64,000 nucleotides of DNA from assembly GCA_024682255.1 (NCBI GenBank), contig GCA_024682255.1_4716.1; one strand, 5' to 3'. Of the stretch, positions 1 to 19,365 are shown one piece after another. The stretch's first letter is position 1. The number at the start of each line of letters is the position of its first letter. The position numbers and the translations under genes are program-made. Under the pieces are notes generated by a model, which searched no databases, was not told the origin of the DNA, and saw nothing but the letters and a program-made list of their open reading frames with translations. Origin of the DNA: a phage.

Positions 1-1471
1 CATCCGCTTCCGGCATAACCTTTGCAGGCGCTAATTTCGCGGCTTTTGGTTTAACTTCAACATACTCGGCAAGTGTTAATCCAGAACCGTCGGGTGCTTC
101 GATTTCGTGAATGGCATCGGCGTTACGCATCGCTGCTTTATATTGGACACCGCTTAACTGACCCGCATCGGCCAGATCGCTCGCGCGTACCAACACCGCA
201 TCCGATAACGACTGAATATATTCACCATGTGTTTTTGGTAACGTTGTCGCATCAAAGACATCAACCTTTTCTTCTTCGGTATCGTCGGTAACGACTTCGA
301 AGAGATCGTCGGTAATGTCCTGATCTTCATCGGGTTGGAAATCCGGCTGTACTTCTACCCCGGGTACTTCACGGACATCTTCGAACGAGCGTTCTACAAT
401 GGCGTTCCACGCATCAGCGTCATCGTCTTCATCCGAACCACCGACCAACTCCGCTTCTAACTCATCGGGATCAAGAACGGTAGCCAGATCCTCACCGTTA
501 GGAAGCACGACGTCGCGATCATCGTACTCCGCATCCGGGCTGTCTGCAAGAATATCCCGCTCTTGACGAAGAACCTGTTCCTCTTCTTGTTTCTGTTCTT
601 CTTCATTCGCGCTCTGCGACCACAGACGTGTTACCGCCATCATCCAACGACGCTGGAAGGTTTCGAGTGTCGTTTTATCGAGTTCTTCCCCTTCCTTTAC
701 AAGTCCGGTACGCCATTCTTCCAGCAAGCCGAGATTCAGCGTAAAGAAGTACACACCGTCTGTAAATACAACGTTAAGCTTATCCAGCGTGGCCCTGTCT
801 AACGAAGCCATCGTGCTGTTCTCACGATCGGTTCCCAGCCAGCGGAAGAAGTCAAAGAACGACAGCTCCTCCGGTGTGGCGAAATTCATGAGGTTGTTAC
901 GGGTCGGTGCCTGTTGCGTGGTACGCATCAACGAAATCTTCGGCAATGTTGACGGTATACGGAACAACAAAAAGTGTTGACGATCGCTTTGCTGTGCGAT
1001 TTCGTTGGCTTTCGACCAAATTGTTTTACGTACGTTGAACCATTCATCATACCAACGGGTGAGCGTTGGACGATAAATGTACATGTGGTTAAGATGCGCG
1101 TAGTTAGCAACGATCTGAGCGTTGATGTTTTTCTCTACCGTGCTTAGATCGGTAACCAAACGAAAACGACGATGTGATGCACGATAATCCAATTTCGCTC
1201 GTGGGAGTTGGAATCGTTGATCGCGTCGAGGTGCGCCCTGTTTGGTTGCGAGATCATCAGCAAACGAAATCCATAGTTGAGCACTTTCTTTACTCAGCAT
1301 GTATTCGTTTTCTGGAGGACCTATCAACGATGGATCCGTTGCGGTGTAATGATAGACAGCATAACGCGGCAGCTGCAATAGCTGCACTAAACGTAATCTC
1401 GGTGATAGTAGCTCTTGGTAGCGTCTGACACCGAACTGTCGGTAGTAATCAAGGTATTTAAGTTTTGCCAT
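1..1471 (-). CDS. hypothetical protein, N-terminal part only (gene continues beyond window start)
   Basis: Open minus-strand frame from ATG at 1469-1471 to position 1 (starts MAKLKYLDYYRQFGVRRYQ); absent from ORF track because no stop in window. ATG lies 3 nt after the stop of beta-prime exon 2 with GGAG ~10 nt upstream. No recognisable motif. Confidence 0.5.
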   Translation of the reverse strand, partial: MAKLKYLDYYRQFGVRRYQELLSPRLRLVQLLQLPRYAVYHYTATDPSLIGPPENEYMLSKESAQLWISFADDLATKQGAPRRDQRFQLPRAKLDYRASHRRFRLVTDLSTVEKNINAQIVANYAHLNHMYIYRPTLTRWYDEWFNVRKTIWSKANEIAQQSDRQHFLLFRIPSTLPKISLMRTTQQAPTRNNLMNFATPEELSFFDFFRWLGTDRENSTMASLDRATLDKLNVVFTDGVYFFTLNLGLLEEWRTGLVKEGEELDKTTLETFQRRWMMAVTRLWSQSANEEEQKQEEEQVLRQERDILADSPDAEYDDRDVVLPNGEDLATVLDPDELEAELVGGSDEDDDADAWNAIVERSFEDVREVPGVEVQPDFQPDEDQDITDDLFEVVTDDTEEEKVDVFDATTLPKTHGEYIQSLSDAVLVRASDLADAGQLSGVQYKAAMRNADAIHEIEAPDGSGLTLAEYVEVKPKAAKLAPAKVMPEAD

Positions 1472-1474
1472 GGG

Positions 1475-1654
1475 TTAGGCTCCACGAGGTCCCGTTAAGT
1501 TGCGTAATAGGAACGCAACTGTATCGTAACCAATATCAATGTTGAATTTATTTTTACCGCTTACCCAAAAAGCACGCTTCTTGTGCGAGTTGGTAATTTC
1601 GTCAATGGCTTCCATGGAATAAAGAACGTTAACCGAGACCGTATCACCGTCGAA
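1475..1654 (-). CDS. RNA polymerase beta-prime-like subunit (N-terminal segment), exon 2 (59 codons + stop)
   Basis: Minus-strand translation FDGDTVSVNVLYSMEAIDEITNSHKKRAFWVSGKNKFNIDIGYDTVAFLLRNLTGPRGA* matches the bacterial beta-prime stretch [21 protein letters not shown]...; frame has no Met so it is absent from the ORF track; stop TAA at 1475-1477. Confidence 0.7.
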   Translation of the reverse strand, partial: FDGDTVSVNVLYSMEAIDEITNSHKKRAFWVSGKNKFNIDIGYDTVAFLLRNLTGPRGA

Positions 1655-2161
1655 CCTTTTCTTCGCCTCAGGTCGCTACGCTGAGACCGCCTGCGTGGAT
1701 ACGTACATCACAGGCTGCTTGCACTTTCATGCAAGAGGAGACTATATCAAACCGTCAGCTTCACCTTCTCGATCGTATCGAGAATGCGGTGCTGAAGTAT
1801 TCTTCAGCAGCACCTGCTACGGTAACCTACACTTCGAAGACGCTTGTCCTCTACAGGGTGGTAAATCCCTTAGTCGTTGAACCTGCGTTGTTTCACATTC
1901 TTGTTTGCAAGAATGCCGTATTGCTACGCAACAACCAGGCTGCTGATTGCCCATTATCACGCACCTTAGCACCGCTTACGCGGCTTTTCTTTCAGCCTAA
2001 GCCTCCGTGGGAGGTAATGTCTGATTAAATCAGACATCGCCAGGAGGTAGTGCATCTCAACTGTTGTTTCCGCCTTTCGGCACCTCATGGGTTGTTGAGC
2101 TTTAGGGGTTCCCAGCAATTCGTAGGTTTTTCAAGCACTCCCTTTCGGGAATACCGGACCA
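1655..2161 (-). ncRNA. group I intron ribozyme core (P3-P9 region)
   Basis: On the minus strand: P-like GAATTGCTGGGAACCCC (~2105-2121), Q-like AATCAGCAGCC (~1938-1948), R-like GGTTCAACGACTAAGGG (~1866-1883), S-like GATATAGTCTCC (~1737-1748). P4 pairing UGCUG/CAGCA and P7 pairing GACUA/UAGUC are present; GAAA tetraloop hairpins (~2070-2084, ~2139-2151). No long ORF. Confidence 0.7.
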
Positions 2162-3646
2162 TTACCCTTTAGCTAATTTATTTAAGTATCTGAAATCCCA
2201 CTTATCTTTGCGTCTATTTTCGCACTTAATAGCTTGGTTCTTTATTCTCCAAGCCACCTTTGTTTTAGGTAATTGGCTGTAATTGGCCGCTGACGCAGTA
2301 CCTAAAACAACGGTTACGGTACCATCGGGTTTAGTAATCTCTACAGCGCGATAATGCTTACGTAACACATTACGCCAATATTCACGGCGTTCTGGCTCAG
2401 CATACTCAAGCATATAACCGTTGGTATCGACCAGACCGTAACACTCGTTTAAACGAGAGGTAGCGGCCGGTCTACTAATACCGATTGCTTTAGCCGCGTC
2501 AACCACGGTTTTATACGGGGTTTCATTACCGTCTCTATCTACAACCACAATAAAATCTGGACGCGAATCGAGCAGCTGCTGTCTTCGTTCAAGGGCTTGT
2601 TGATGAAGCACCTTGTTAACATGTTCGAACCCGTAACCTTCTGGACCGCGCCACCCTGGATTGTTATTCGCTCGATAAAGTACCGTCGCTGATTTCACTC
2701 CAGTCTGACGTGACGCCTCGTTTGCACTATGAACAACCGTGGTAGAGCCGTCAGGGTGATATATCCGTATCTGGTTCATTATACCGGAACCAACAAAATT
2801 ACCATCAGCTGATTTAATATCCGGCCATGGTTGAGGATTATCCTTGAATTTAACCACCCAACGACTGTTAAACAATTTGACTTTCCGGGCATGTTTACCC
2901 ATTGTCGTATCCGTAACACCAGCTACAACAGAGGCTTGCGTGATACTCAGGTACTCAGTAACGGTATCGTCCCATGTATCCCAGAGCAGAACCGGTTTAT
3001 TGTCGTCGCGTAAACCGTGTTCGATAGCATGCAGGACATTACGACTTCTGGTTGCCCATTCAAGGTTGTCAAGAGAATAGTTCCACTTATCGGCATCAAG
3101 ATGGTTAACGTCCATCCTATCGACATCGGCTGGATACTCTCTCCACGCCAGCATTAGACAACGGTGTAATACCTTGCTACCGGCCTTCTGGCGACAATCA
3201 TGTTTCAAGCAGACAGTAACGTAACGGTTCGTTACGAAACACGGGCGACAAATGCTCCCGTCTTTTCTGTCCCTGATATCACCTACTTCGTTTATTACAT
3301 ATCTCGTCAGTCCTGGAATAACGCGATAGCCAGGATACTTAGCGATTTCATAAGCGGGCTCGAACCGATAGGATAAATTATCAACATCCCAGTTAGATTC
3401 GTCACCATCAACAAACATCGCTTTGACGTATTTCTGTGTTTCAATATCAACCAGGATGTTTTTGTGTGCGATACAAATCAATGCTGGGATATTGAATTCG
3501 CGACCGGCTAAGATAACCGTGTCGCCATCTCTCGGTACCTCGACGTGGGTATCGCGATACCGCAAGTTTCCATAGCCGTCTATTTCAATCCAGCTTAGAA
3601 ACGGAATAGATATAAATTCTTTTTCAGATACTCGCCATTTAAACAT
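2162..3646 (-). CDS. HNH homing endonuclease (intron-encoded)
   Basis: Track ORF, 494 aa; HNH_3-type motif VNHLDADKWNYSLDNLEWATRSRNVLHAIEHG; ATG with AGGGG SD; lies between the 5' splice site and the ribozyme core. Confidence 0.85.
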   Translation of the reverse strand: MFKWRVSEKEFISIPFLSWIEIDGYGNLRYRDTHVEVPRDGDTVILAGREFNIPALICIAHKNILVDIETQKYVKAMFVDGDESNWDVDNLSYRFEPAYEIAKYPGYRVIPGLTRYVINEVGDIRDRKDGSICRPCFVTNRYVTVCLKHDCRQKAGSKVLHRCLMLAWREYPADVDRMDVNHLDADKWNYSLDNLEWATRSRNVLHAIEHGLRDDNKPVLLWDTWDDTVTEYLSITQASVVAGVTDTTMGKHARKVKLFNSRWVVKFKDNPQPWPDIKSADGNFVGSGIMNQIRIYHPDGSTTVVHSANEASRQTGVKSATVLYRANNNPGWRGPEGYGFEHVNKVLHQQALERRQQLLDSRPDFIVVVDRDGNETPYKTVVDAAKAIGISRPAATSRLNECYGLVDTNGYMLEYAEPERREYWRNVLRKHYRAVEITKPDGTVTVVLGTASAANYSQLPKTKVAWRIKNQAIKCENRRKDKWDFRYLNKLAKG

Positions 3647-3731
3647 ATAAACCCCTGTATAACCTTACTGTCACACTAAGAGGTTTATCTGTAAATTCTT
3701 ACAGAATGGCGTAATTTTACTAAAAGGGCCG

Positions 3732-5198
3732 ATCACCGCCTAAACCGGCGAGGTATGGCGCAGGAACAATAGTCGTTTCTACGAACGAAGCATTAGGTAA
3801 CCAGTCGGGGTATTCCCATGCGATAAATCGTTCATCCGTTATTGGTTCCCAGTTACTATCCAGTTCGGTTTTCGGTTTTGCAGCGACGGTTGTACGCGCG
3901 TAACAGGTTAACGGGATAACGGATTGCATACCCGATACCGGATAACGTGTTACCATCGCAGCCAGGTTATTCCAGTACTTATATCCGGCGATATAGATAA
4001 GCTCGGTGTAAGTAATGGGGTGAACATCCGCACCAGGTTTATTCAACATCTCTGGGGGTAATTCACTCATACCACGGAATAACCGAAACGAATCGTTGTT
4101 CACATAGACGAGGCAAAGATAACGTCCATTGACCATGATAGGTTCATTACGCACACCAGGATCGCTTAAGGTGTTCAGTAAACGTTCGATACCGTCCCAG
4201 GTTGTAAAGTCATCGATGGTGTCTGGATCAAGCGTGACACGTTCACGTTCCATCGTTTCGGTATCGATAAGTTCAACTTCTGTAACATCACGGACAAATA
4301 TTTCCTGCAAAATCCCCGTACGTAACGCATGTTGCGTTACAGGGAGAGCAGCTTTACTCATCTGGTATAACCCTAACTGAACCGCGGTACAGGAAGGCTG
4401 GTTAGGCGACCCTAGTACCTCCGTTGTGGGGTTAATTGCCGAAATAACGTTACGGGTTGAGTTCCAAACGCGACGTGAACCGAACTTGCCTTGGAAGATC
4501 CCTTTCTTACCTTGGAACATATCCAACAACAAAGCGTAGATATCGTTAAATGTTCTCTGTAAGCTCCAGCGCTGGCCGTCGTAAACGGGATCAGAATAAT
4601 CTTTTAATCCATCAGGGACGGTGTTAGAAATTGCAAGGAAACGACGATACAACTCTGTGATTTCTTGCTCGCTTTCATACCCGCCTTCTTTTACTTCTAT
4701 TTCACGTAAGCCCGCAGGTAAAACCAGTAAGTGACGAGTCATCGCTTTGAACATGTTCTCTTCGACAACTTTAATTCGTAGCTCTCGTTGAGCTGAACCT
4801 GTTGAAACGAACTTGATATCCGCGACGTGTTGTGCAAAGAACCCATATCCTGTTTGTCCTGTTAACGCATCAGACGCAACGAAGTCGCGTTGTTCAGGAT
4901 CCCACCGAGCGTACGCCTTCCCCGACATGATATCGCCATAGAGGTGTTTTAGTCGAATGAGGCGATCGTAAATGACGGGATGCAGGATTTCAACCTTACA
5001 TTCAATCACCGCAAATCGACGGTCTCGATCTTCGCTACCCGCACTACCAAAGATGGTGTAAGAATAGAAACCATCATCGTGGAAATTACCGGTGCTTGGG
5101 TCACGGATGCTCATGCTCGTGATCTTGGGGAGAAAACGTAACTGCTGTTTATCGAGGTGTAAAATACTAATGTTAAACGGCTCTCTGACTTTAGCCAT
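3732..5198 (-). CDS. RNA polymerase beta-prime-like subunit (N-terminal segment), exon 1
   Basis: Track ORF 3720..5240. Start moved to ATG at 5196-5198 (M15, AGAGGAG SD). Beta-prime-like motifs: TIFGS (cf. RIFGP), LLVLPAGLRE (cf. LTVLPVLPPDLRP), ITELYRRFLAISN (cf. LNDLYRRVINRNN), GKKGIFQGKFGSRRVWNSTRNVI (cf. [23 protein letters not shown]), VTRYPV (cf. NRAPTLH). Ends ..PAPYLAGLGGD at the position of ..AAYNAD, so the last codons RPF plus the TAG/TAA stops are read as intronic. Confidence 0.75.
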
Positions 5199-5443
5199 GG
5201 AGACACTCCTCTTTACCACCACCGGCTGCGGCGGTATCATCTGAACACACGAGAGACGTAATGGGTGATGGCGTCACCCATCGCTTCCTTGCTTGAGGCG
5301 AGGAAGTTATTAGGTTACGTACCTGCCTGATTTTATCAGGTGGGCGATGTGTGAAGTTACGCTTCAACATTATCAATGCCGAAGGTAAACTTCGTGCATC
5401 ACGTTCCAACGTAACATGGGAACGTATCGAACTGGAGGTATAC
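5199..5443. promoter_or_regulatory. divergent intergenic region with palindromic hairpins
   Basis: Lies between divergent starts of beta-prime (5198, minus) and the giant virion protein (5444, plus). Inverted repeats GGGTGA-tggcg-TCACCC (~5263-5279), CTTCCT..AGGAAG (~5284-5306) and CGTTCC..GGAACG (~5400-5422). Confidence 0.35.
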
Positions 5444-8400
5444 ATGGTAGATAAAACCCGTGTTGAGGGTGATGATAATTGGGATAACTGGGATGAAGAC
5501 TTCTCCCTGGATCTCGATTTCAACGAACCCAAAGACGATCGTAAACCGATAACACGCTTTGCGGTAGGCGCGGTTAAAGGTGCCGCTGAGGATCTTACTT
5601 CCTACGAAAGAATGAAGGAGATCGCCAGAAACGCGTTGCCTAAGGGCTACAGCGACGGTATGGATCTTATCGATTCCGCCGTCGGATCCACGAAGGAACT
5701 ATACAATGAAGCCGTTCGTGACGTTCTTCCTAAGGTCCAAAGCTCAAAACGGTTAGCCGCACAACTAACCAAGAAATACCGTGCGAGCATGCCCGATTTC
5801 TCAAAGAAAATTCTCGAGCAATGGGAGCGAGAAGCCAAGGAAGAAGACGAACGTAAACAAGCTGAAGAAACCCTTCGTCAACGCATGGCGAGCGCTGGGG
5901 ACGATGAGATCGCCCGCAAGGTTGCCGAGGCATTAGGTGAATCAGCAAACCAAAGCGCGGATCAGTTCGCTGAACAGCAAGCAAAAGAAAGTATCCGTGA
6001 CGATATCGCTGACAAACGGTACGCTGTAACCAACAAACAAATGAGTGCGATGCAAGAAGGCGTCGCCAAGATGGTTGGTTTCAACAATGAATTCGCTGCA
6101 CGCTACATGCGTAAAAGCCTGGAACTGAAATATCGTTCCTTAGCGATTCAACGTGCGAGTTTTGATCAGCATAAAAAGTTAGCCGAAGTCTATATCGGTT
6201 TATTACAAAACATCCAGAAGAATACGGCTTTACCTGATGCGGCTAAAGCGAAAATGTCGGAAGAATTCCGTCGTAGCGCATACCAACGCTTCTTTGGTAA
6301 TGCGTTAGATGCGATGGGTTCTTTCGAGAACCGTTTCTTTGCCGATGTTAAGAAGAACCTTGCCACCAACGCATTAGGTGCTTTAAAAGGCGTCGTATCT
6401 GGCGCAAACGATGCGTTATACGGTTTAAACGAAGCGCGTGACTCGATGTCCATGATGGACGGGATGGGGTCAGAAGGCGATATTAAGGAAATGCAAGGAA
6501 AGATGTTGGGTCAGTTCATTGGCTCAACTGTCGCCCCATGGATGGCTAATAAAGGCAGGATGGCGTTACGCGATTTAGCAAAACGTCACCCCAATGCTAA
6601 ATTCGCTAGCGCGTTAAAAGCCGTGGATCAAGGTGGTGAGGCTGCCGCTTACACGACGCGTAATCTCGGTAAACTGCTCCAGGAAGATATTCGTAAAAAC
6701 GAATTCAATCTTAGCGATCCGTTTTACAAGCAATTAATACGTGGCGCAGGGCGTTGGGCGTTCAACATGGACAGCGGACGTAACTTCCGTGTGATGAACG
6801 ACACCGCTGAAACACTGGCGGAGCAAACGTCTTTCGACGGTTTAACTTACCGCAGCATCAACGAGGTTATTCCTGGCTTTCTTGCACGCATTCTGAAAAG
6901 CAGTGAAGGTATCCGCACCGGAAACAGCGATCCTGACTACGAGGTCTATGACGGCATCAGCGGGCAATTCGTGTCTCAGCGCACGCGTGAACAAAGCGTC
7001 AACGACACGCTGTTTAACAAACGTTCGTTTGGTTATTACGCAAGCCGTTTCAATGAGGTCATCTCGGTCATCGATCCTGATAAGCAATTATCGGAAAAAG
7101 CCAGAAAGGCGCTGGCTAAGCAGTTGGCACGAGATAGCGACGCAAATATCGCATTCGACCCGGCCCGTTTTACGGATGAAAGCAACTTCGATCGTAGTAT
7201 TGACCGCGACGCTATTAAGGAACTTTCCACGTACTTTCGTGACCGTTACGGTATTCGTGATGATGTCAACGATAAGGGCGAACGTCATCAGGTCATTGGA
7301 AACCGCGGGCAATATTACACGGAACGTAACCGAGCTGATCTTCGCTACGGAAATCTGAAATCGTTACAGCCGGATATCCAGCGTAACCTTAACCTACTGA
7401 AACGTACTGGCGACGTCCAATATCTGGAACGTATCGGTATTGTAACGAGAAATAGCGACGGAAGTTACTCGGTTAATCACGATCGGTATTTCTCTGAAAT
7501 CGATCGGTACATCGACCGACCGGAGTACGCTGAACGTAGTGATGTTAATACGCGATTAACCGCTCAGGAAACAAGAGCGCTGGCGCTAGGTTATCGTGAT
7601 GCAAAACCATCAGCTGGTGACGTCCAAAATGCGGGTCTGCCGAACATCGATCGTAAGGCTGTTGGCGCAGTAACCGTTGATGAAAACATCGGCTACGATA
7701 AATGGTGGAACGATACAGGTGTTATCACCACATCGCTTGAAGAACAGAATCGAGCATGGCAAGAGCTTTATCTCGAAGCGTTGTCTGAAGCATCCGAACA
7801 ACGTGTTGAAATGCTTACGTTACTGAAAGCCATTTCTGAGAAAGACTGGTCTAATAACGTTTCGCTGGATGGTGTAGATGTACCTGAAGGTGCGGCACCC
7901 ATTTCATTTATCGATCGTGCCAAACAAAAACTCGGTACACGCAACCTCTTTAAAGGTGGTCGTAATCTTCTCTGGAAAGGAATTAAAAATACCGCACGTT
8001 TGGGTGTTAAAGGCGCGCGCTGGGGTGCAGAACGCACGTTGGGTAGTTTGGTAAATTCTGGCCGACGCATTATCGATTTCAACCGCTTCGTGTTCGGCGC
8101 ATTATCCAAGGTTGATCAGGTTCCGTTTGACATTTACGTTAAAGGGGAATCCCAACCACGCATATTGGCGGCCAAACTTCGTCAGGGGTTATACTTCGAC
8201 GAAGCGACAGGAAAAGCCGTAAAACGGATGAAGGATATCAAAGGCCCACTCGTTGATGTGGATGGAAATATCGTAATCAGCAACGAGGATATCGAGAAAG
8301 GGTTGGTCACTCGCGCTGGTCGAGCCTTTGAGAATTCAGGACTTAAGGCGTGGGCACGTGAAGGTCTTAATGGAATCACGACGGTATTAAGTCTCCCACG

Positions 8401-11400
8401 GATGTTAAAACGCGGTGCGGTCGAGATCTACAAACAGCTCGACAAGACGCCCGACGTTTACGTCAAGGGAGAATCAACGCCTCGTCTGTTGTCCATGGTG
8501 TTAGCAGCGGGTGGGTATTTCCGTCGGTCGGATGGACAAGTCATCAAAAATCTTGAAGATATCGATGGTGATGTTGTTGATGCACAAGGTAACGTCGTAC
8601 TTACGCTTGCCGACATGCAGAAAGGACTTGTCGATAAATACGGTAAAGCGATTCGTCGCTTAAAAGAAAAGCTCATCAACTTCGGTGTAAAAGCTTTTAC
8701 GTTACCGTTAACGCTGCTACGTAAGACAAAGGACATCCTTAAAGCCCTTCCAGGTAAAACCGTTAACGGTCTACGACGGATGGGATTAAACTTCCAATCA
8801 CCTGACGCATTACTGGTGGGAACAACGTCGAGCATGGTAGATCGCCTCGATGCTATTTACCAGCTTCTTGACCAGCGTATGCCGGGAGGTGATAAGGATT
8901 ACCGCGATTGGAATGGTGATGGTGTTCGAGAAGGATCGTTGGAAGACCTGAAACGTAAGCGTGAAGCCAAGGAAAACGGTAAGGATGAATCAGGCAAAGA
9001 TTCCAATAAAGGAGAAGAAAAGGAGAAGAAACGAGGGTTACTCGGAAGCCTTTTCGATATGCTCGGCGATACCGCATTAGGCAAACGACTCATGGCGAGT
9101 CCGCTTGGAAAAATTCTGGGTGGTCTTGGGGCGGTGTTAAGCGGCGGAGCATCGTTAACCGGATTGTTAGGCAAGGGTCTCATTAGTGGAACCGGCGCGC
9201 TGGTCAAGGGAGGACTAAGTGCGGCAGGATGGTTAGGACGTGGTGCGTTAATGGCGGGCGGAGCCGCATTGAACGCTGTTGGTGGTTTATCGGGATTAGG
9301 CGCATTCCTTATATCACCTGTTGGGCTTGCTATTGCAGGTGGTGCATTGGCTGCTTATGCAGGATGGAAGATCTATCAGCATTTCGCCGAGAAGCCTGAC
9401 CCGATGCAGAAGCTCCGTCTTATTGCATACGGTGCAAAAGGGGACGATAAAGACTTCAATAAGAAGCTGCTTGCGACAGAAACATACCTCACCGATCACG
9501 TGGTTATGACCGGGGATACCATCGGATTCGATCCGAAAGCGGATTCTGAAAAGATTCTCGAAATCTGGGAATTGTCCCTGGAAGACTCCGACCGAATGAA
9601 CGAATGGAAACGCTGGTATCTGCATCGTTTTATTCCTGTTTTCGCTCGTGCGTACAAACTCTGGAAAGAGCATATGCCGGACGAGAAGAAATACATGGAA
9701 ATGGATAAATATCCGAACGGTGAGAACAAAGTGAAATGGTCGGAAGCGTTTATCTGGCCTTCCGATAGTCCTGACGGTCCGTATTACGTCGAAGCTAACC
9801 CGTTGGGTTCTTCTGGTGCGACGCGTTATATTGCTGGTCAAGACGTCAAAACCTTGATGCTGAAACAACTCGAAGCCATCAAGAAAGAGTACCAGAATCA
9901 GATCAAACAATACACTCATGATGAGGCTATTGCTGATTGGTCACGGATGTCTGACACACAACGTAAATCCGTTGCGCCTAACGCATTACGTGGTCAGAAA
10001 GCGTCGTTACGTTTTAACGATAAACGTTACAACAGCGCTGGCGCTAAAGGACGACAGAAGCTTGACGCGACCGCGGTTATTGAAAGCGTAGACCGTCGTG
10101 GTAGAAAATGGGTTGCCGGTGGATACATCGATGAACTCACCAGTCTCCGTGTTCGTGCGTACGGTATTAAGGTTCCGTTGTTAAGTCAGATAAAAGTGCT
10201 GATGGAACTCGAAGACGCTGTAGAACCCGGCGTTGTCGCTGAAGGTAAAGGTGTTAAATACGGTGGCGATCTTGTTGCGCTCTACAAGAAATTCGCGACG
10301 AAATTCGGAAGAGACGTTAACAGCAAGCGGGATCAGGATATCTGGTTCGCTTGGATGAATAACCGTTTCCTACCCGTCTTTTTAACCTATTACCAACAAG
10401 TTAGCGAAATGGGCGGTCAAGGGCTTCTGTCCGACGTGGTACAGAACCTGAAAGACAGCCAACGTTGGGAAATCGGTGAAGCACTTGTCGCAACGCAATA
10501 CCGTGATGAGAAAGGTACACTGCAGCCTGTATGGTCCTGGAATAGTTGTGGTTTCTCCGGTACTGAAGCTAACACCACCAGCAGTTCAACAAAGAGCCAG
10601 CTCGATCTGTTAAAAGAATATGCGGATAAAGAGAAGGTTCGTGAGAAGAACGCGGAAGCATCGCAAGAGGATGCCGATAAATTATCGAAGATCCAAGAGC
10701 TGATGATGAAGCAGGCTGGGTACGAGAAGAAAGACGGTGTCTGGCAGAAGAAATCTCGCATTACCGGTGGGATGAGTAACTCCGAAGCGAATTACAACCC
10801 CAATAGGAATAAGGTCGGTGAAAGCAGCTTTACGGCTTCGGCTACGTCCAATGCGGGATTGGGATCAACCGGCGATCTTACTGGATTGCCTAACATGGGC
10901 TTACAGAAACCTGCAATGGGACCAGGTCCTGAAGCTGGACGTCGTGCGCTTGTTAAATCCGCTGTAAAACGCGGCATTACCGATCCGATGGAAATGGCCA
11001 TGTTCCTTGCGAACATCGAACATGAATCGGGGAACTACACTCACGTACGTGAGGGGAACTATAAGACACCGGAGCGTCTTAAACAGGTCTTCCCTTACAA
11101 ATTCCGTGATGTGCAGGATGCCGCACAGACGATCAGCATGGGGCCGGAGGCGGTATTCGAACGTGTGTACGGTAATCGTAAAGATCTCGGAAACACACAG
11201 AAAGGAGACGGGGCGAAGTATTTAGGACGTGGCTTCATTCAGGTTACCGGTAAAGCTAACTACGCTCGTCTGTCTAAGACCTTGAATAAGGATCTTGTCA
11301 GCGATCCGACCTACCTGGAAACGCCGGAAGGTGCGGCGGAAGGTAGTGTCGCGTGGTGGCTCAACCGAGGTAATGTATTACGCGATCCCGCAAAACGGGG

Positions 11401-12109
11401 TGATGTGCGCCAAGTTCGTTATCTGGTTAACGGTGGTTTTAACGGATTACGTGATGTTGAACAGCGTTCAGCTTATTGGATTCAGGCGGCTAAGAATGGC
11501 ACCCTGAAGAAAATGATGGACGAGTTATCGGGGTCAACATCGGACGATCAAGTTGAAGGACCGACCACTGCCGAACAGGTGAAGAACGAAGCAGCCCAAG
11601 AGGCAAACGGAACACCTGCTGTAAGCAACGATCCGCAAGCCCCAGTATCTTCTACTACCCCTGAAGCTAAACCGTCTGCGGCTGCCGGTACTGCTCCAGC
11701 ACCTGGAGAAGCATCACCAACGCCTGGAAGTTTCGAAACAGCAAAAGCCGCGGCAGGACAACCGACATCAACACCAGCACCTAGCGATTTGCCGTCAAAC
11801 CCGGGTGCAAATCGAGGGATATCGGTTCCGAATACGCCTGCACAGGTTGCGCAGTCTGCGACACAAACATCGGTTGCGAGCGAGAACTTCTACGGCAGCG
11901 CAGGTGAAATTCTCCGACAGCAGCTGACCACACAGCAGAACATCGAGAAGAACACCGGTAGAACGAATGAACTTATTTCGGAATTAATCCAAGCCGTTAA
12001 GGGTTCTTCTATCGGTAAGGGTTCTGCAGGTCCTTCTCAACAACAGACGATGTCGCTACCTAATCGTCCGCAAGGAATCTCTCCAACACGGACAAGGTAC
12101 GCACAGTAG
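5444..12109 (+). CDS. giant virion-associated protein with C-terminal GH19 lysozyme-like domain (tape-measure/ejection-protein-like)
   Basis: Track ORF 5351..12109 (GTG start). Likely start is ATG 5444 with GGAGG SD. Coiled-coil-rich N-terminal half; Gly/Ala-rich hydrophobic segment (LGGLGAVLSGGASLTGLLGKGLISGTGALVKGGLSAAGWLG...); GH19 signature HESGNY ... YLGRGFIQVTGKANYARL (~nt 10970-11500); Pro/Ala/Ser/Thr-rich linker near the C-terminus. Confidence 0.85.
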   Translation: MVDKTRVEGDDNWDNWDEDFSLDLDFNEPKDDRKPITRFAVGAVKGAAEDLTSYERMKEIARNALPKGYSDGMDLIDSAVGSTKELYNEAVRDVLPKVQSSKRLAAQLTKKYRASMPDFSKKILEQWEREAKEEDERKQAEETLRQRMASAGDDEIARKVAEALGESANQSADQFAEQQAKESIRDDIADKRYAVTNKQMSAMQEGVAKMVGFNNEFAARYMRKSLELKYRSLAIQRASFDQHKKLAEVYIGLLQNIQKNTALPDAAKAKMSEEFRRSAYQRFFGNALDAMGSFENRFFADVKKNLATNALGALKGVVSGANDALYGLNEARDSMSMMDGMGSEGDIKEMQGKMLGQFIGSTVAPWMANKGRMALRDLAKRHPNAKFASALKAVDQGGEAAAYTTRNLGKLLQEDIRKNEFNLSDPFYKQLIRGAGRWAFNMDSGRNFRVMNDTAETLAEQTSFDGLTYRSINEVIPGFLARILKSSEGIRTGNSDPDYEVYDGISGQFVSQRTREQSVNDTLFNKRSFGYYASRFNEVISVIDPDKQLSEKARKALAKQLARDSDANIAFDPARFTDESNFDRSIDRDAIKELSTYFRDRYGIRDDVNDKGERHQVIGNRGQYYTERNRADLRYGNLKSLQPDIQRNLNLLKRTGDVQYLERIGIVTRNSDGSYSVNHDRYFSEIDRYIDRPEYAERSDVNTRLTAQETRALALGYRDAKPSAGDVQNAGLPNIDRKAVGAVTVDENIGYDKWWNDTGVITTSLEEQNRAWQELYLEALSEASEQRVEMLTLLKAISEKDWSNNVSLDGVDVPEGAAPISFIDRAKQKLGTRNLFKGGRNLLWKGIKNTARLGVKGARWGAERTLGSLVNSGRRIIDFNRFVFGALSKVDQVPFDIYVKGESQPRILAAKLRQGLYFDEATGKAVKRMKDIKGPLVDVDGNIVISNEDIEKGLVTRAGRAFENSGLKAWAREGLNGITTVLSLPRMLKRGAVEIYKQLDKTPDVYVKGESTPRLLSMVLAAGGYFRRSDGQVIKNLEDIDGDVVDAQGNVVLTLADMQKGLVDKYGKAIRRLKEKLINFGVKAFTLPLTLLRKTKDILKALPGKTVNGLRRMGLNFQSPDALLVGTTSSMVDRLDAIYQLLDQRMPGGDKDYRDWNGDGVREGSLEDLKRKREAKENGKDESGKDSNKGEEKEKKRGLLGSLFDMLGDTALGKRLMASPLGKILGGLGAVLSGGASLTGLLGKGLISGTGALVKGGLSAAGWLGRGALMAGGAALNAVGGLSGLGAFLISPVGLAIAGGALAAYAGWKIYQHFAEKPDPMQKLRLIAYGAKGDDKDFNKKLLATETYLTDHVVMTGDTIGFDPKADSEKILEIWELSLEDSDRMNEWKRWYLHRFIPVFARAYKLWKEHMPDEKKYMEMDKYPNGENKVKWSEAFIWPSDSPDGPYYVEANPLGSSGATRYIAGQDVKTLMLKQLEAIKKEYQNQIKQYTHDEAIADWSRMSDTQRKSVAPNALRGQKASLRFNDKRYNSAGAKGRQKLDATAVIESVDRRGRKWVAGGYIDELTSLRVRAYGIKVPLLSQIKVLMELEDAVEPGVVAEGKGVKYGGDLVALYKKFATKFGRDVNSKRDQDIWFAWMNNRFLPVFLTYYQQVSEMGGQGLLSDVVQNLKDSQRWEIGEALVATQYRDEKGTLQPVWSWNSCGFSGTEANTTSSSTKSQLDLLKEYADKEKVREKNAEASQEDADKLSKIQELMMKQAGYEKKDGVWQKKSRITGGMSNSEANYNPNRNKVGESSFTASATSNAGLGSTGDLTGLPNMGLQKPAMGPGPEAGRRALVKSAVKRGITDPMEMAMFLANIEHESGNYTHVREGNYKTPERLKQVFPYKFRDVQDAAQTISMGPEAVFERVYGNRKDLGNTQKGDGAKYLGRGFIQVTGKANYARLSKTLNKDLVSDPTYLETPEGAAEGSVAWWLNRGNVLRDPAKRGDVRQVRYLVNGGFNGLRDVEQRSAYWIQAAKNGTLKKMMDELSGSTSDDQVEGPTTAEQVKNEAAQEANGTPAVSNDPQAPVSSTTPEAKPSAAAGTAPAPGEASPTPGSFETAKAAAGQPTSTPAPSDLPSNPGANRGISVPNTPAQVAQSATQTSVASENFYGSAGEILRQQLTTQQNIEKNTGRTNELISELIQAVKGSSIGKGSAGPSQQQTMSLPNRPQGISPTRTRYAQ

Positions 12110-18690: not shown

Positions 18691-19365
18691 TTAGCCCTCA
18701 TCAAGGTTATTCTGGAGATGCATCGCGGTGAGGATAACACCAACCGCCGAAACCGATTTTGCCTTGCTGTCTTCAGGGAGCTGCTCCAAGCTTACGGTAC
18801 CTGTTTCTAACAGCATACGGTTCATCGCGTTGAACTTCTTATCGTCGCCACCACGAGCCTGCATCAACTCTCGGTTCACGTTCGGCATCGACCGTCCTAA
18901 CGTCGCCTGCATTTCCGGCTGGCTCCAAGTGGAACCTTTACTATCACCCGTCGGCTGATTGGTGAGCTGGTCCTTGGTGTTGTTGTTTTTCGGAATCGAT
19001 ATTTTAGCACTCAACGTTTCGGCTTGTCGGCGGTTTGGAATCAGGTACAATCGGGTTGGGCGGTCACGAAGCACCAACTGTCCTGTTTTCTGATCGGTAA
19101 GATAAATGCGCTGGAAGAAAGGGAAACCGTATTTCTTACCGACTTCCAACGCCCGTTTTATCGTCACCTCGTTTTTGTTCATGTTGGGTACCCAGATGGG
19201 TAGAATCTCTTTCTTATCCCGGCATAAACGCATATAGGCATCAAACGTCTCATCATCGATTTCGGCAAAACGTTTTTTGTAAATAGCGTAAGTTGGGCTC
19301 GATTCACCCACCAGGTCTTTGATATACCCAAGAATGAATTTTTCTGCTGCAGCGCGGTTGGACAT
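18691..19365 (-). CDS. hypothetical protein
   Basis: Track ORF, 224 aa. Confidence 0.6.
   Translation of the reverse strand: MSNRAAAEKFILGYIKDLVGESSPTYAIYKKRFAEIDDETFDAYMRLCRDKKEILPIWVPNMNKNEVTIKRALEVGKKYGFPFFQRIYLTDQKTGQLVLRDRPTRLYLIPNRRQAETLSAKISIPKNNNTKDQLTNQPTGDSKGSTWSQPEMQATLGRSMPNVNRELMQARGGDDKKFNAMNRMLLETGTVSLEQLPEDSKAKSVSAVGVILTAMHLQNNLDEG

Follow-up and report, generated by a model that had tools for sequence, protein, structure and literature searches.

The multisubunit RNA polymerases (RNAPs) of jumbo phages have no alpha and omega subunits, and their beta-prime-like subunits are divided just past the double-psi beta-barrel (DPBB) domain, at the same place as in cyanobacteria (Sokolova et al., PMC7598289). 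Mass spectrometry of Goslar virions identified five subunits of the virion-packaged multisubunit RNA polymerase (vRNAP), namely gp78, gp196, gp205, gp207 and gp210 (bioRxiv 10.64898/2026.04.21.720040), and for phiKZ gp180 both packaging in the virion and a role in early transcription have been reported (PMC10612078). Introns have been described in these phages as well: the intron-encoded endonucleases gp56, gp72 and gp179 of phiKZ were predicted in 2002, when its genome was sequenced (cited in PMC10914365), and vRNAP genes with introns and a homing nuclease appear in Figure 7 of Thomas et al. 2016 (PMC5105663). A split vRNAP with mobile group I introns in its genes is already published biology of phiKZ-like and Goslar phages. 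In this study, we analyzed a 64,000-nucleotide (nt) stretch of phage DNA (contig GCA_024682255.1_4716.1 of assembly GCA_024682255.1; hereafter the window), near the start of which the predicted gene for the N-terminal part of a vRNAP beta-prime subunit (beta-prime-N) is interrupted, within its catalytic motif, by a putative group I intron carrying an HNH homing endonuclease gene.

Bases 1-5300 of the window are 94% identical at the nucleotide level to Escherichia phage vB_EcoM_Goslar (Goslar), and the gene order is the same. Goslar is a nucleus-forming jumbo phage (Goslarvirus). The synteny of the locus also matches phiKZ gp181-gp180-gp179-gp178. It is very probable that the region is part of the vRNAP of a Goslar-like nucleus-forming jumbo phage, comprising the beta-prime-N gene with its intron and a beta-like gene. 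Compared with Goslar (NC_048170, MK327938), the exons show 95.5% nucleotide identity, the exon 1 protein is 99.8% identical over residues 1-489, and the intron insertion site and the downstream gene of 1448 amino acids (aa) are the same. The differences lie in the 85-nt intron leader, which is unrelated, in the endonuclease, which is 84.5% identical with two saturated blocks, and in a 33-nt hairpin insertion found only in the window. In the Goslar records, the matching stretch carries four annotations: a 502-aa 'RNA polymerase beta subunit' (gp205), a hypothetical protein noted as 'weakly similar to ORF179 of phiKZ' (gp206), the ncRNA Intron_gpI and a 1448-aa 'RNA polymerase beta subunit' (gp207). 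Exon 1 is given there as a complete coding sequence (CDS) reading into the intron, and exon 2, with 59 codons (L001:9614-9793), is unannotated.

The beta-prime-N gene of the window starts with the ATG at 5198, preceded by the Shine-Dalgarno-like AAGAGGAG at 5213-5206. Its unspliced frame runs through ...APYLAGLGGD, with GGC GGT GAT as the last codons of exon 1 at 3732, and then adds RPF and a stop codon. Exon 2 opens at 1654 (TTC GAC GGT GAT...) in a frame that differs from that of exon 1, and its TAA is at 1477-1475; the insertion point falls between the GAT codon for the first Asp and the TTC codon for Phe of the DFDGD motif. Joining 5198..3732 to 1654..1475 yields a protein of 548 aa containing D489-F-D-G-D493 and ending exactly 55 residues past the motif, so that the length and tail given for the spliced product in the preliminary description (about 548 aa and about 55 residues) hold. 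Because the intron lies exactly past the first Asp codon, the mRNA would have to be spliced to give an active subunit; translation of the unspliced message would stop after 492 aa and leave out D491 and D493, two of the three catalytic aspartates.

Comparison with intron-less alleles demonstrates the exon junction at the sequence level. In the Goslar-like contigs L005-L010 (carets below mark the insertion point), the gene is one uninterrupted open reading frame (ORF) of 1647 nt, and the homologues P0001 and P0003, each of 548 aa, are 100% identical to the spliced product at full coverage. The longest contigs for these two clusters measure 236 and 238 kb and have the same neighbors as the window, namely the 2252-aa gene upstream on the opposite strand and, after a gap of 3 nt, the 1448-aa gene downstream. 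Between the window and the intron-less alleles, 48-84 of the 1647 positions differ, and as the proteins are identical, all of these differences are synonymous. They cluster at CDS positions 1455-1473, flanking the insertion point: the intron-less alleles read GG(T/C) GGG GAC^TTT GA(C/T) and the intron-bearing ones (window and Goslar) GGC GGT GAT^TTC GAC, the final exon base being U solely in the latter. The ligated ORF corresponds exactly to the intron-less allele, and the identity between window and Goslar collapses exactly one base past GAT. Within the 177 nt of exon 2, five to six synonymous and no non-synonymous changes separate the window from the intron-less alleles (dN, the non-synonymous divergence, is 0), which argues that exon 2 is translated. 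There is no in-frame start codon ahead of FDGD in the exon 2 frame, so an intact active site could arise only by splicing; peptides belonging to exon 2 are AFWVSGK, FNIDIGYDTVAFLLR and NLTGPR. The full motif is missing from 12 of the 120 best homologue clusters, and 11 of those 12 end at or shortly past G[AG]D; one of them, P0005, ends in GGDRPF exactly as the unspliced frame of the window does, and P0068 breaks one codon earlier.

The 238,276-nt contig of P0003 ('hypothetical protein BZQ24_08735 [Salmonella enterica serovar Enteritidis]') is a near-complete intron-less Goslar-like genome in a Salmonella Enteritidis assembly, which hints that Goslar-like phages also occur with Salmonella or contaminate such assemblies.

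The spliced product matches PHROG 2986 from end to end (residues 3-543 on profile positions 3-538 of 539, E 2e-179). According to tblastn, 285 of 296 phage records hold a colinear, uninterrupted homologue over residues 1-544, among them RAY ('putative vRNAP beta' subunit 1'), PhiPA3, 201phi2-1 and phiKZ-like phages. D489, D491 and D493 are invariant in 61 aligned sequences, and the triad is complete only once the exons are joined. Beyond D[FYH]DGD, the tail has a median length of 53 residues in the 108 homologue clusters with an intact motif; the short C terminus is therefore the norm of the family and does not indicate truncation. The protein contains four cysteines (C67, C270, C362 and C432), none of them conserved among the 61 aligned homologues, in which no alignment column reaches 30% Cys. 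This agrees with the earlier remark that zinc-finger cysteines are missing near the N terminus and indicates a beta-prime-N protein without the N-terminal zinc ribbon.

A phmmer search of PDB sequences retrieved the beta-prime-N chains of the AR9 non-virion RNAP (nvRNAP; E 4e-4), plastid beta-prime and cyanobacterial gamma. The AlphaFold2 model of the 548-aa protein, based on the alignment of 61 sequences, has a mean pLDDT (predicted local distance difference test score) of 84.5, and Foldseek returned 584 PDB matches at E <=0.001. The best 50 of these are all RNAP beta-prime, gamma or RpoC1 chains (E 3.5e-15 to ~6e-12, probability 1.00), with AR9 7S00_d (E 3.5e-15) and the cyanobacterial gamma chain 8SYI_D in the lead. 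The template modeling (TM) scores are low (0.31-0.37), as is expected for a multi-domain chain modeled alone. Sequence and structure searches thus found an RNAP beta-prime fold in the spliced product, and its description as the beta-prime N-terminal segment of a jumbo-phage multisubunit RNAP is borne out. From these matches and the gene order, we assign the product as the beta-prime N-terminal subunit of the vRNAP, the predicted counterpart of phiKZ gp180, SPN3US gp240 and Goslar gp205. It holds the part of beta-prime made up of the clamp and the DPBB, including the Mg-binding DxDxD triad.

Cyanobacterial gamma and plastid RpoC1, both ranking high in the structure and sequence searches, are likewise N-terminal fragments that end shortly past the DPBB/NADFDGD region, and the end of the phage protein about 55 residues past the triad coincides with the beta-prime split site of cyanobacteria and plastids. 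The coincidence with cyanobacterial gamma has been noted before (PMC7598289). The phage protein differs from them in having only ~13% sequence identity and in lacking the zinc ribbon.

The intervening sequence of 2077 nt is best interpreted as a group I intron with an HNH homing endonuclease gene. In a cmscan search, the Rfam model RF00028 was matched over its full length (1-253) at 2180..1718 with 57.9 bits (gathering score 50, E 4e-13); the Goslar and phiKZ copies score 67.7 and 92.2 bits, respectively. The bases at the splice sites are ...GAU^C... (5') and ...AGG^UUC (3'). A U closing the 5' exon and a G closing the intron are hallmarks of group I introns. The ribozyme core is 90-99% identical to that of Goslar, apart from a 33-nt insertion (~2007-2040) in a peripheral loop, which contains a perfect 21-nt palindromic hairpin (ATGTCTGATTTAATCAGACAT, 2037-2017) and is not present in the Goslar intron. 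The 85-nt leader shares almost no sequence with the Goslar leader, and minimum free energy (MFE) folds give two hairpins in both. In the window, these are located at 3704-3689 and 3688-3647; the second lies directly against the endonuclease ATG and sequesters the purine-rich AGGGG before it, which, judging from the fold, may restrict translation of the endonuclease.

We also searched the window, Goslar and phiKZ for an internal guide sequence (IGS), defined as G-initiated complements of the last six exon bases; there were many chance matches, and no position was common to the three. One stretch of the core, GUUACC with UCGAA ahead of it (~1842-1818), shows complementarity to each of the exon ends and was rejected as a guide, as Rfam places it in P3'/P8 and the hairpins preceding P3'.

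The phiKZ locus has the same gene order and orientation, a beta-prime-N orthologue that is ~38% identical and a group I intron at the identical codon boundary GAD^FDGD, with the HNH gene gp179, a short exon 2 and then the beta-like gene. As in the Goslar records, the annotation of phiKZ covers only exon 1: gp180 is given as 490 aa ending in ...LGAD-stop, the unannotated FDGDTVSFNAVY... ends just ahead of gp178, and in NC_004629 at ~186100-187790 (L011:6100-7789) the CDS ends inside the intron and the exon 2 of ~62 codons is omitted. Unlike that of the window, the phiKZ intron is 1443 nt long, and its endonuclease, of 357 aa, is 29% identical over 45% of the length. Many phiKZ-like phages do not have the intron.

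The ORF of 494 aa inside the intron matches Pfam HNH_3 (34.4 bits, cut-off 24.8, residues 176-204) and PHROGs 59 (E 2e-24), 959 and 1492, all labeled 'HNH endonuclease'; the matches to NUMOD1 (15.1 bits) and to an I-HmuI NUMOD-like model (13.2 bits) are weak and under their cut-offs. Its identity is 84.5% with Goslar gp206 and 29% with phiKZ gp179. Against Goslar gp206, the ratio of non-synonymous to synonymous divergence (dN/dS) is 0.17 overall, and the divergence is a mosaic: codons 1-100 and 251-400 have a dS of 0.07-0.37, like the exons (~0.2), whereas saturation (dS >1) is reached in codons 401-494 and in codons 101-250, the latter being the block with the HNH motif. This mosaic and the dN/dS of 0.17 point to a functional gene that appears to have recombined with a divergent endonuclease allele. 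The protein would be an active endonuclease, and the candidate target derived from the intron-less alleles is GGTGGGGAC^TTTGA(C/T)GGTGAT, written out GGTGGGGAC^TTTGACGGTGAT.

Another related element, a group I intron encoding the HNH nicking endonuclease gp210, interrupts the vRNAP beta gene of PhiPA3 (gp211/209) directly past a conserved Asp codon (Birkholz et al. 2024, PMC11620839). In that system, too, intron-plus and intron-minus alleles coexist naturally among related phages. The PhiPA3 element differs from that of the window in the gene (beta, past the DD motif) and in the endonuclease. The beta site of the PhiPA3 intron is probably empty in the lineage of the window, which itself ends before that part of the gene, and the related contig L006 has an endonuclease-less intron there. 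It is tempting, although on balance rather doubtful, to regard the intron and its endonuclease as a weapon among co-circulating Goslar-like phages, one that could nick the beta-prime-N gene in competitors without the intron, in the way that PhiPA3 gp210 acts on phiKZ gp178. Public data already contain alleles with and without the intron that are only 3-5% apart, and this offers a natural E. coli/Salmonella system for the idea.

The gene that follows, with its ATG at 1471-1469, 3 nt beyond the exon 2 stop, leaves the window at position 1 after 490 codons, as had been stated earlier. These codons are 99% identical to P0121 and Goslar gp207, and PHROG 3148 is matched with E = 0 by the full-length Goslar protein and with E 9e-66 by residues 1-275 of the window. 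A family profile made from four full-length sequences (the Goslar-like one, two metagenomic relatives and phiKZ gp178) matches residues 394-880 of Thermus RNAP beta (E 8e-7), and the alignment spans a GPGG-type loop, an HDDANR-like DRDD motif and a GDK...K motif. Such a profile was needed, as Pfam gave nothing meaningful for the full beta-like protein and phmmer with it against PDB sequences gave a chance match only. The gene had been put forward as possibly the following RNAP segment; it does encode an RNAP subunit, but from these matches one of the beta type, orthologous to phiKZ gp178, SPN3US gp241 and Goslar gp207, and not the C-terminal part of beta-prime (beta-prime-C).

It had also been pointed out that the first ~490 residues show no bridge-helix or trigger-loop motif, and this is correct. 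Those motifs belong to beta-prime-C, and the stretch is occupied by a phage-specific N-terminal extension of ~430 residues. Residues 1-275 (1471-647) form a compact non-RNAP alpha/beta domain (AlphaFold pLDDT 94.7, predicted TM-score 0.92), for the AlphaFold2 model of which no specific relative was found in the PDB, and residues ~285-410 (619-242) form an acidic low-complexity linker. A word-indexed homologue search with the full-length protein yielded only three proteins, probably because it was swamped by this linker, and one with residues 1-275 yielded none, whereas an exhaustive HMMER search with residues 1-275 succeeded and returned 682 cluster representatives; all 150 of these that were listed have the start of the match among their first 41 residues. 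SPN3US gp241 similarly has an N-terminal domain of ~400 residues without beta homology (Thomas et al. 2016, PMC5105663). For that protein, head targeting has been proposed in the literature as the role of the extension.

The beta-like family is itself interrupted in places. In L006:7651-12458 (logan:SRR7721869_3372), which has no DFDGD intron, the beta-like gene is divided into ORFs of 1069 and 366 aa by an endonuclease-less group I intron of ~500 nt directly past DRDD (Rfam 54 bits, L006:10856-11222), at the site of the PhiPA3 gp210 intron (Birkholz et al. 2024). Of the 150 beta-like representatives (P0124-P0273), 58 are 1000-1199 aa long and mostly end at or just past ...DRDD, 25 ending exactly on DD; a further 46 measure 500-699 aa, with 27 of them ending at or just past RKQRGD, contig truncation being possible for some. 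The pattern points to three sites at which vRNAP genes may be interrupted repeatedly, always directly past an Asp codon (GAD^FDGD in beta-prime, RKQRGD^ and DRDD^ in beta); these sites may be recurrent battlegrounds across Chimalliviridae.

A third virion-RNAP subunit of the window is encoded by the ORF at 18691..19365, the equivalent of Goslar gp196: it matches PHROG 3233 (E 1e-65), is 39% identical to phiKZ gp149 (E 1e-47) and has homologues in 290 jumbo-phage records. The search for beta-prime-C in the window covered 10 of the 14 ORFs of at least 330 aa, which were scanned against PHROGs, and no RNAP subunit was found among them. The beta-prime-C pieces of Goslar have been reported as gp78 and gp210. 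The remainder of beta-prime would lie elsewhere in the genome, outside the window; the counterpart of Goslar gp210, which matches PHROG 2926 'virion structural protein', is located just past position 1.

Several observations weigh against this interpretation of the locus. We infer splicing from sequence comparison, and for the homologous phiKZ gp179 intron, long-read transcriptomics did not reveal any splicing in the conditions of that study (PMC10914365). The best P1 candidate, AUUACGCC at 3715-3708, pairs the splice-site U with A and not with G, the situation in phiKZ being similar, and MFE folds of the Goslar leader show no equivalent P1-like hairpin; the lack of a convincing P1 or IGS is the weakest point of the intron assignment. 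These points, together with the annotation of the exon 1 ORF alone in GenBank and RefSeq, could mean that the gene is a decaying, inactive copy in which the intron no longer splices and only the 492-aa protein is made. We consider this improbable, because the protein encoded by exon 2 is fully conserved against the intron-less alleles in spite of the synonymous changes, exon 2 has no start codon for independent translation, and the core, which is well conserved between window and Goslar, exceeds the Rfam gathering score in both and in phiKZ. In addition, the genome has no second vRNAP-type beta-prime-N copy, and PHROG 2987 is matched only weakly. The vRNAP is essential for early transcription in phages of the phiKZ/Goslar type, which also counts against an inactive copy.

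Functional splicing of the gene being the preferred interpretation, it remains to consider which polymerase the protein belongs to and what its partner is. No Pfam model recognizes the spliced beta-prime-N protein, which we attribute to divergent RNAP subunits not being covered by Pfam, and the nearest solved structure belongs to a non-virion enzyme, that of AR9. The virion assignment draws on orthology, synteny and the published Goslar proteomics rather than on data from this phage, in which packaging of the subunit in the virion would follow by analogy. That the protein is instead part of an nvRNAP, of the phiKZ gp55 type, is nevertheless very unlikely. No vRNAP structure turned up in the PDB searches, so the top rank of the AR9 chains is uninformative. 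PHROG 2987, also labeled 'RNA polymerase beta subunit' and presumably the non-virion paralogue, is matched only at E 1.4e-5 over residues 137-255, in contrast to the full-length match to PHROG 2986. By identity and gene order, the orthologue is phiKZ gp180, annotated as 'structural head protein', and Goslar gp205 is among the five vRNAP subunits of the virion (bioRxiv 10.64898/2026.04.21.720040). Still less credible is that the gene starting at 1471 supplies the missing C-terminal part of beta-prime, an idea favored by its tight coupling to the beta-prime-N gene across a gap of 3 nt. The family profile aligns to RNAP beta and not to beta-prime, the protein carries the beta-type motifs GGRS..., DRDD... 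and GDKG...K, its orthologues phiKZ gp178 and SPN3US gp241 are described as beta fragments (PMC5105663, PMC11620839), the former as a beta homologue (PMC11620839), and the reported beta-prime-C pieces of Goslar are other proteins, as stated above.

The features of the locus are listed in Table 1. Divergently from the beta-prime-N gene and adjoining it, at 5351-12109 on the plus strand, there is a gene of 2252 aa with a C-terminal lysozyme/chitinase-like region that matches PHROG 3201 'tail fiber protein'. It is placed like phiKZ gp181, which is annotated as a tail-associated endolysin, and the gp181-gp180-gp178 neighborhood is kept from phiKZ through the Goslar-like phages.

Table 1. Predicted vRNAP genes and intron features of the window, with the evidence for each
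Feature	Coordinates	Strand	Evidence
Exon 1, predicted virion-RNAP beta-prime N-terminal subunit gene, codons 1-489 ending ...GLGGD	3732..5198	-	translation; PHROG 2986
Putative group I intron, 2077 nt	1655..3731	-	intron-less alleles L005-L010; Goslar identity breakpoint; Rfam RF00028 match inside
Intron 5' leader: candidate P1/IGS and two hairpins	3647..3731	-	MFE folds, pairwise alignment
Predicted intron-encoded HNH homing endonuclease, 494 aa	2162..3646	-	Pfam HNH_3, PHROG 59
Predicted group I ribozyme core, RF00028 model positions 1-253	1718..2180	-	cmscan 57.9 bits, E 4e-13
Exon 2, FDGDTVSVNV...GPRGA, 59 codons + TAA	1475..1654	-	translation; intron-less alleles
Predicted virion-RNAP beta-like large subunit gene, codons 1-490 (1448 aa when complete)	1..1471	-	PHROG 3148
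Small beta-like C-terminal fragment (phiKZ gp149 / Goslar gp196), 224 aa	18691..19365	-	PHROG 3233

The window thus belongs to a phage of the Goslar type of nucleus-forming jumbo phages and holds three of the five virion-RNAP subunit genes. What is added here to the published biology is the comparative proof of the exon junction, the recognition that exon 2 is missing from two reference annotations, the recombinant endonuclease allele and the side observations on intron hot spots. The beta-prime-N proteins deposited for Goslar and phiKZ are without two of the three catalytic aspartates, and their correction is of practical value, the spliced sequence of 548 aa being the right one for structural, proteomic and knock-down studies of the vRNAP. 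The coexistence of intron-plus and intron-minus alleles and the truncated ORFs at three Asp codons in metagenomic relatives provide material for the idea that intron endonucleases may serve these phages as weapons.

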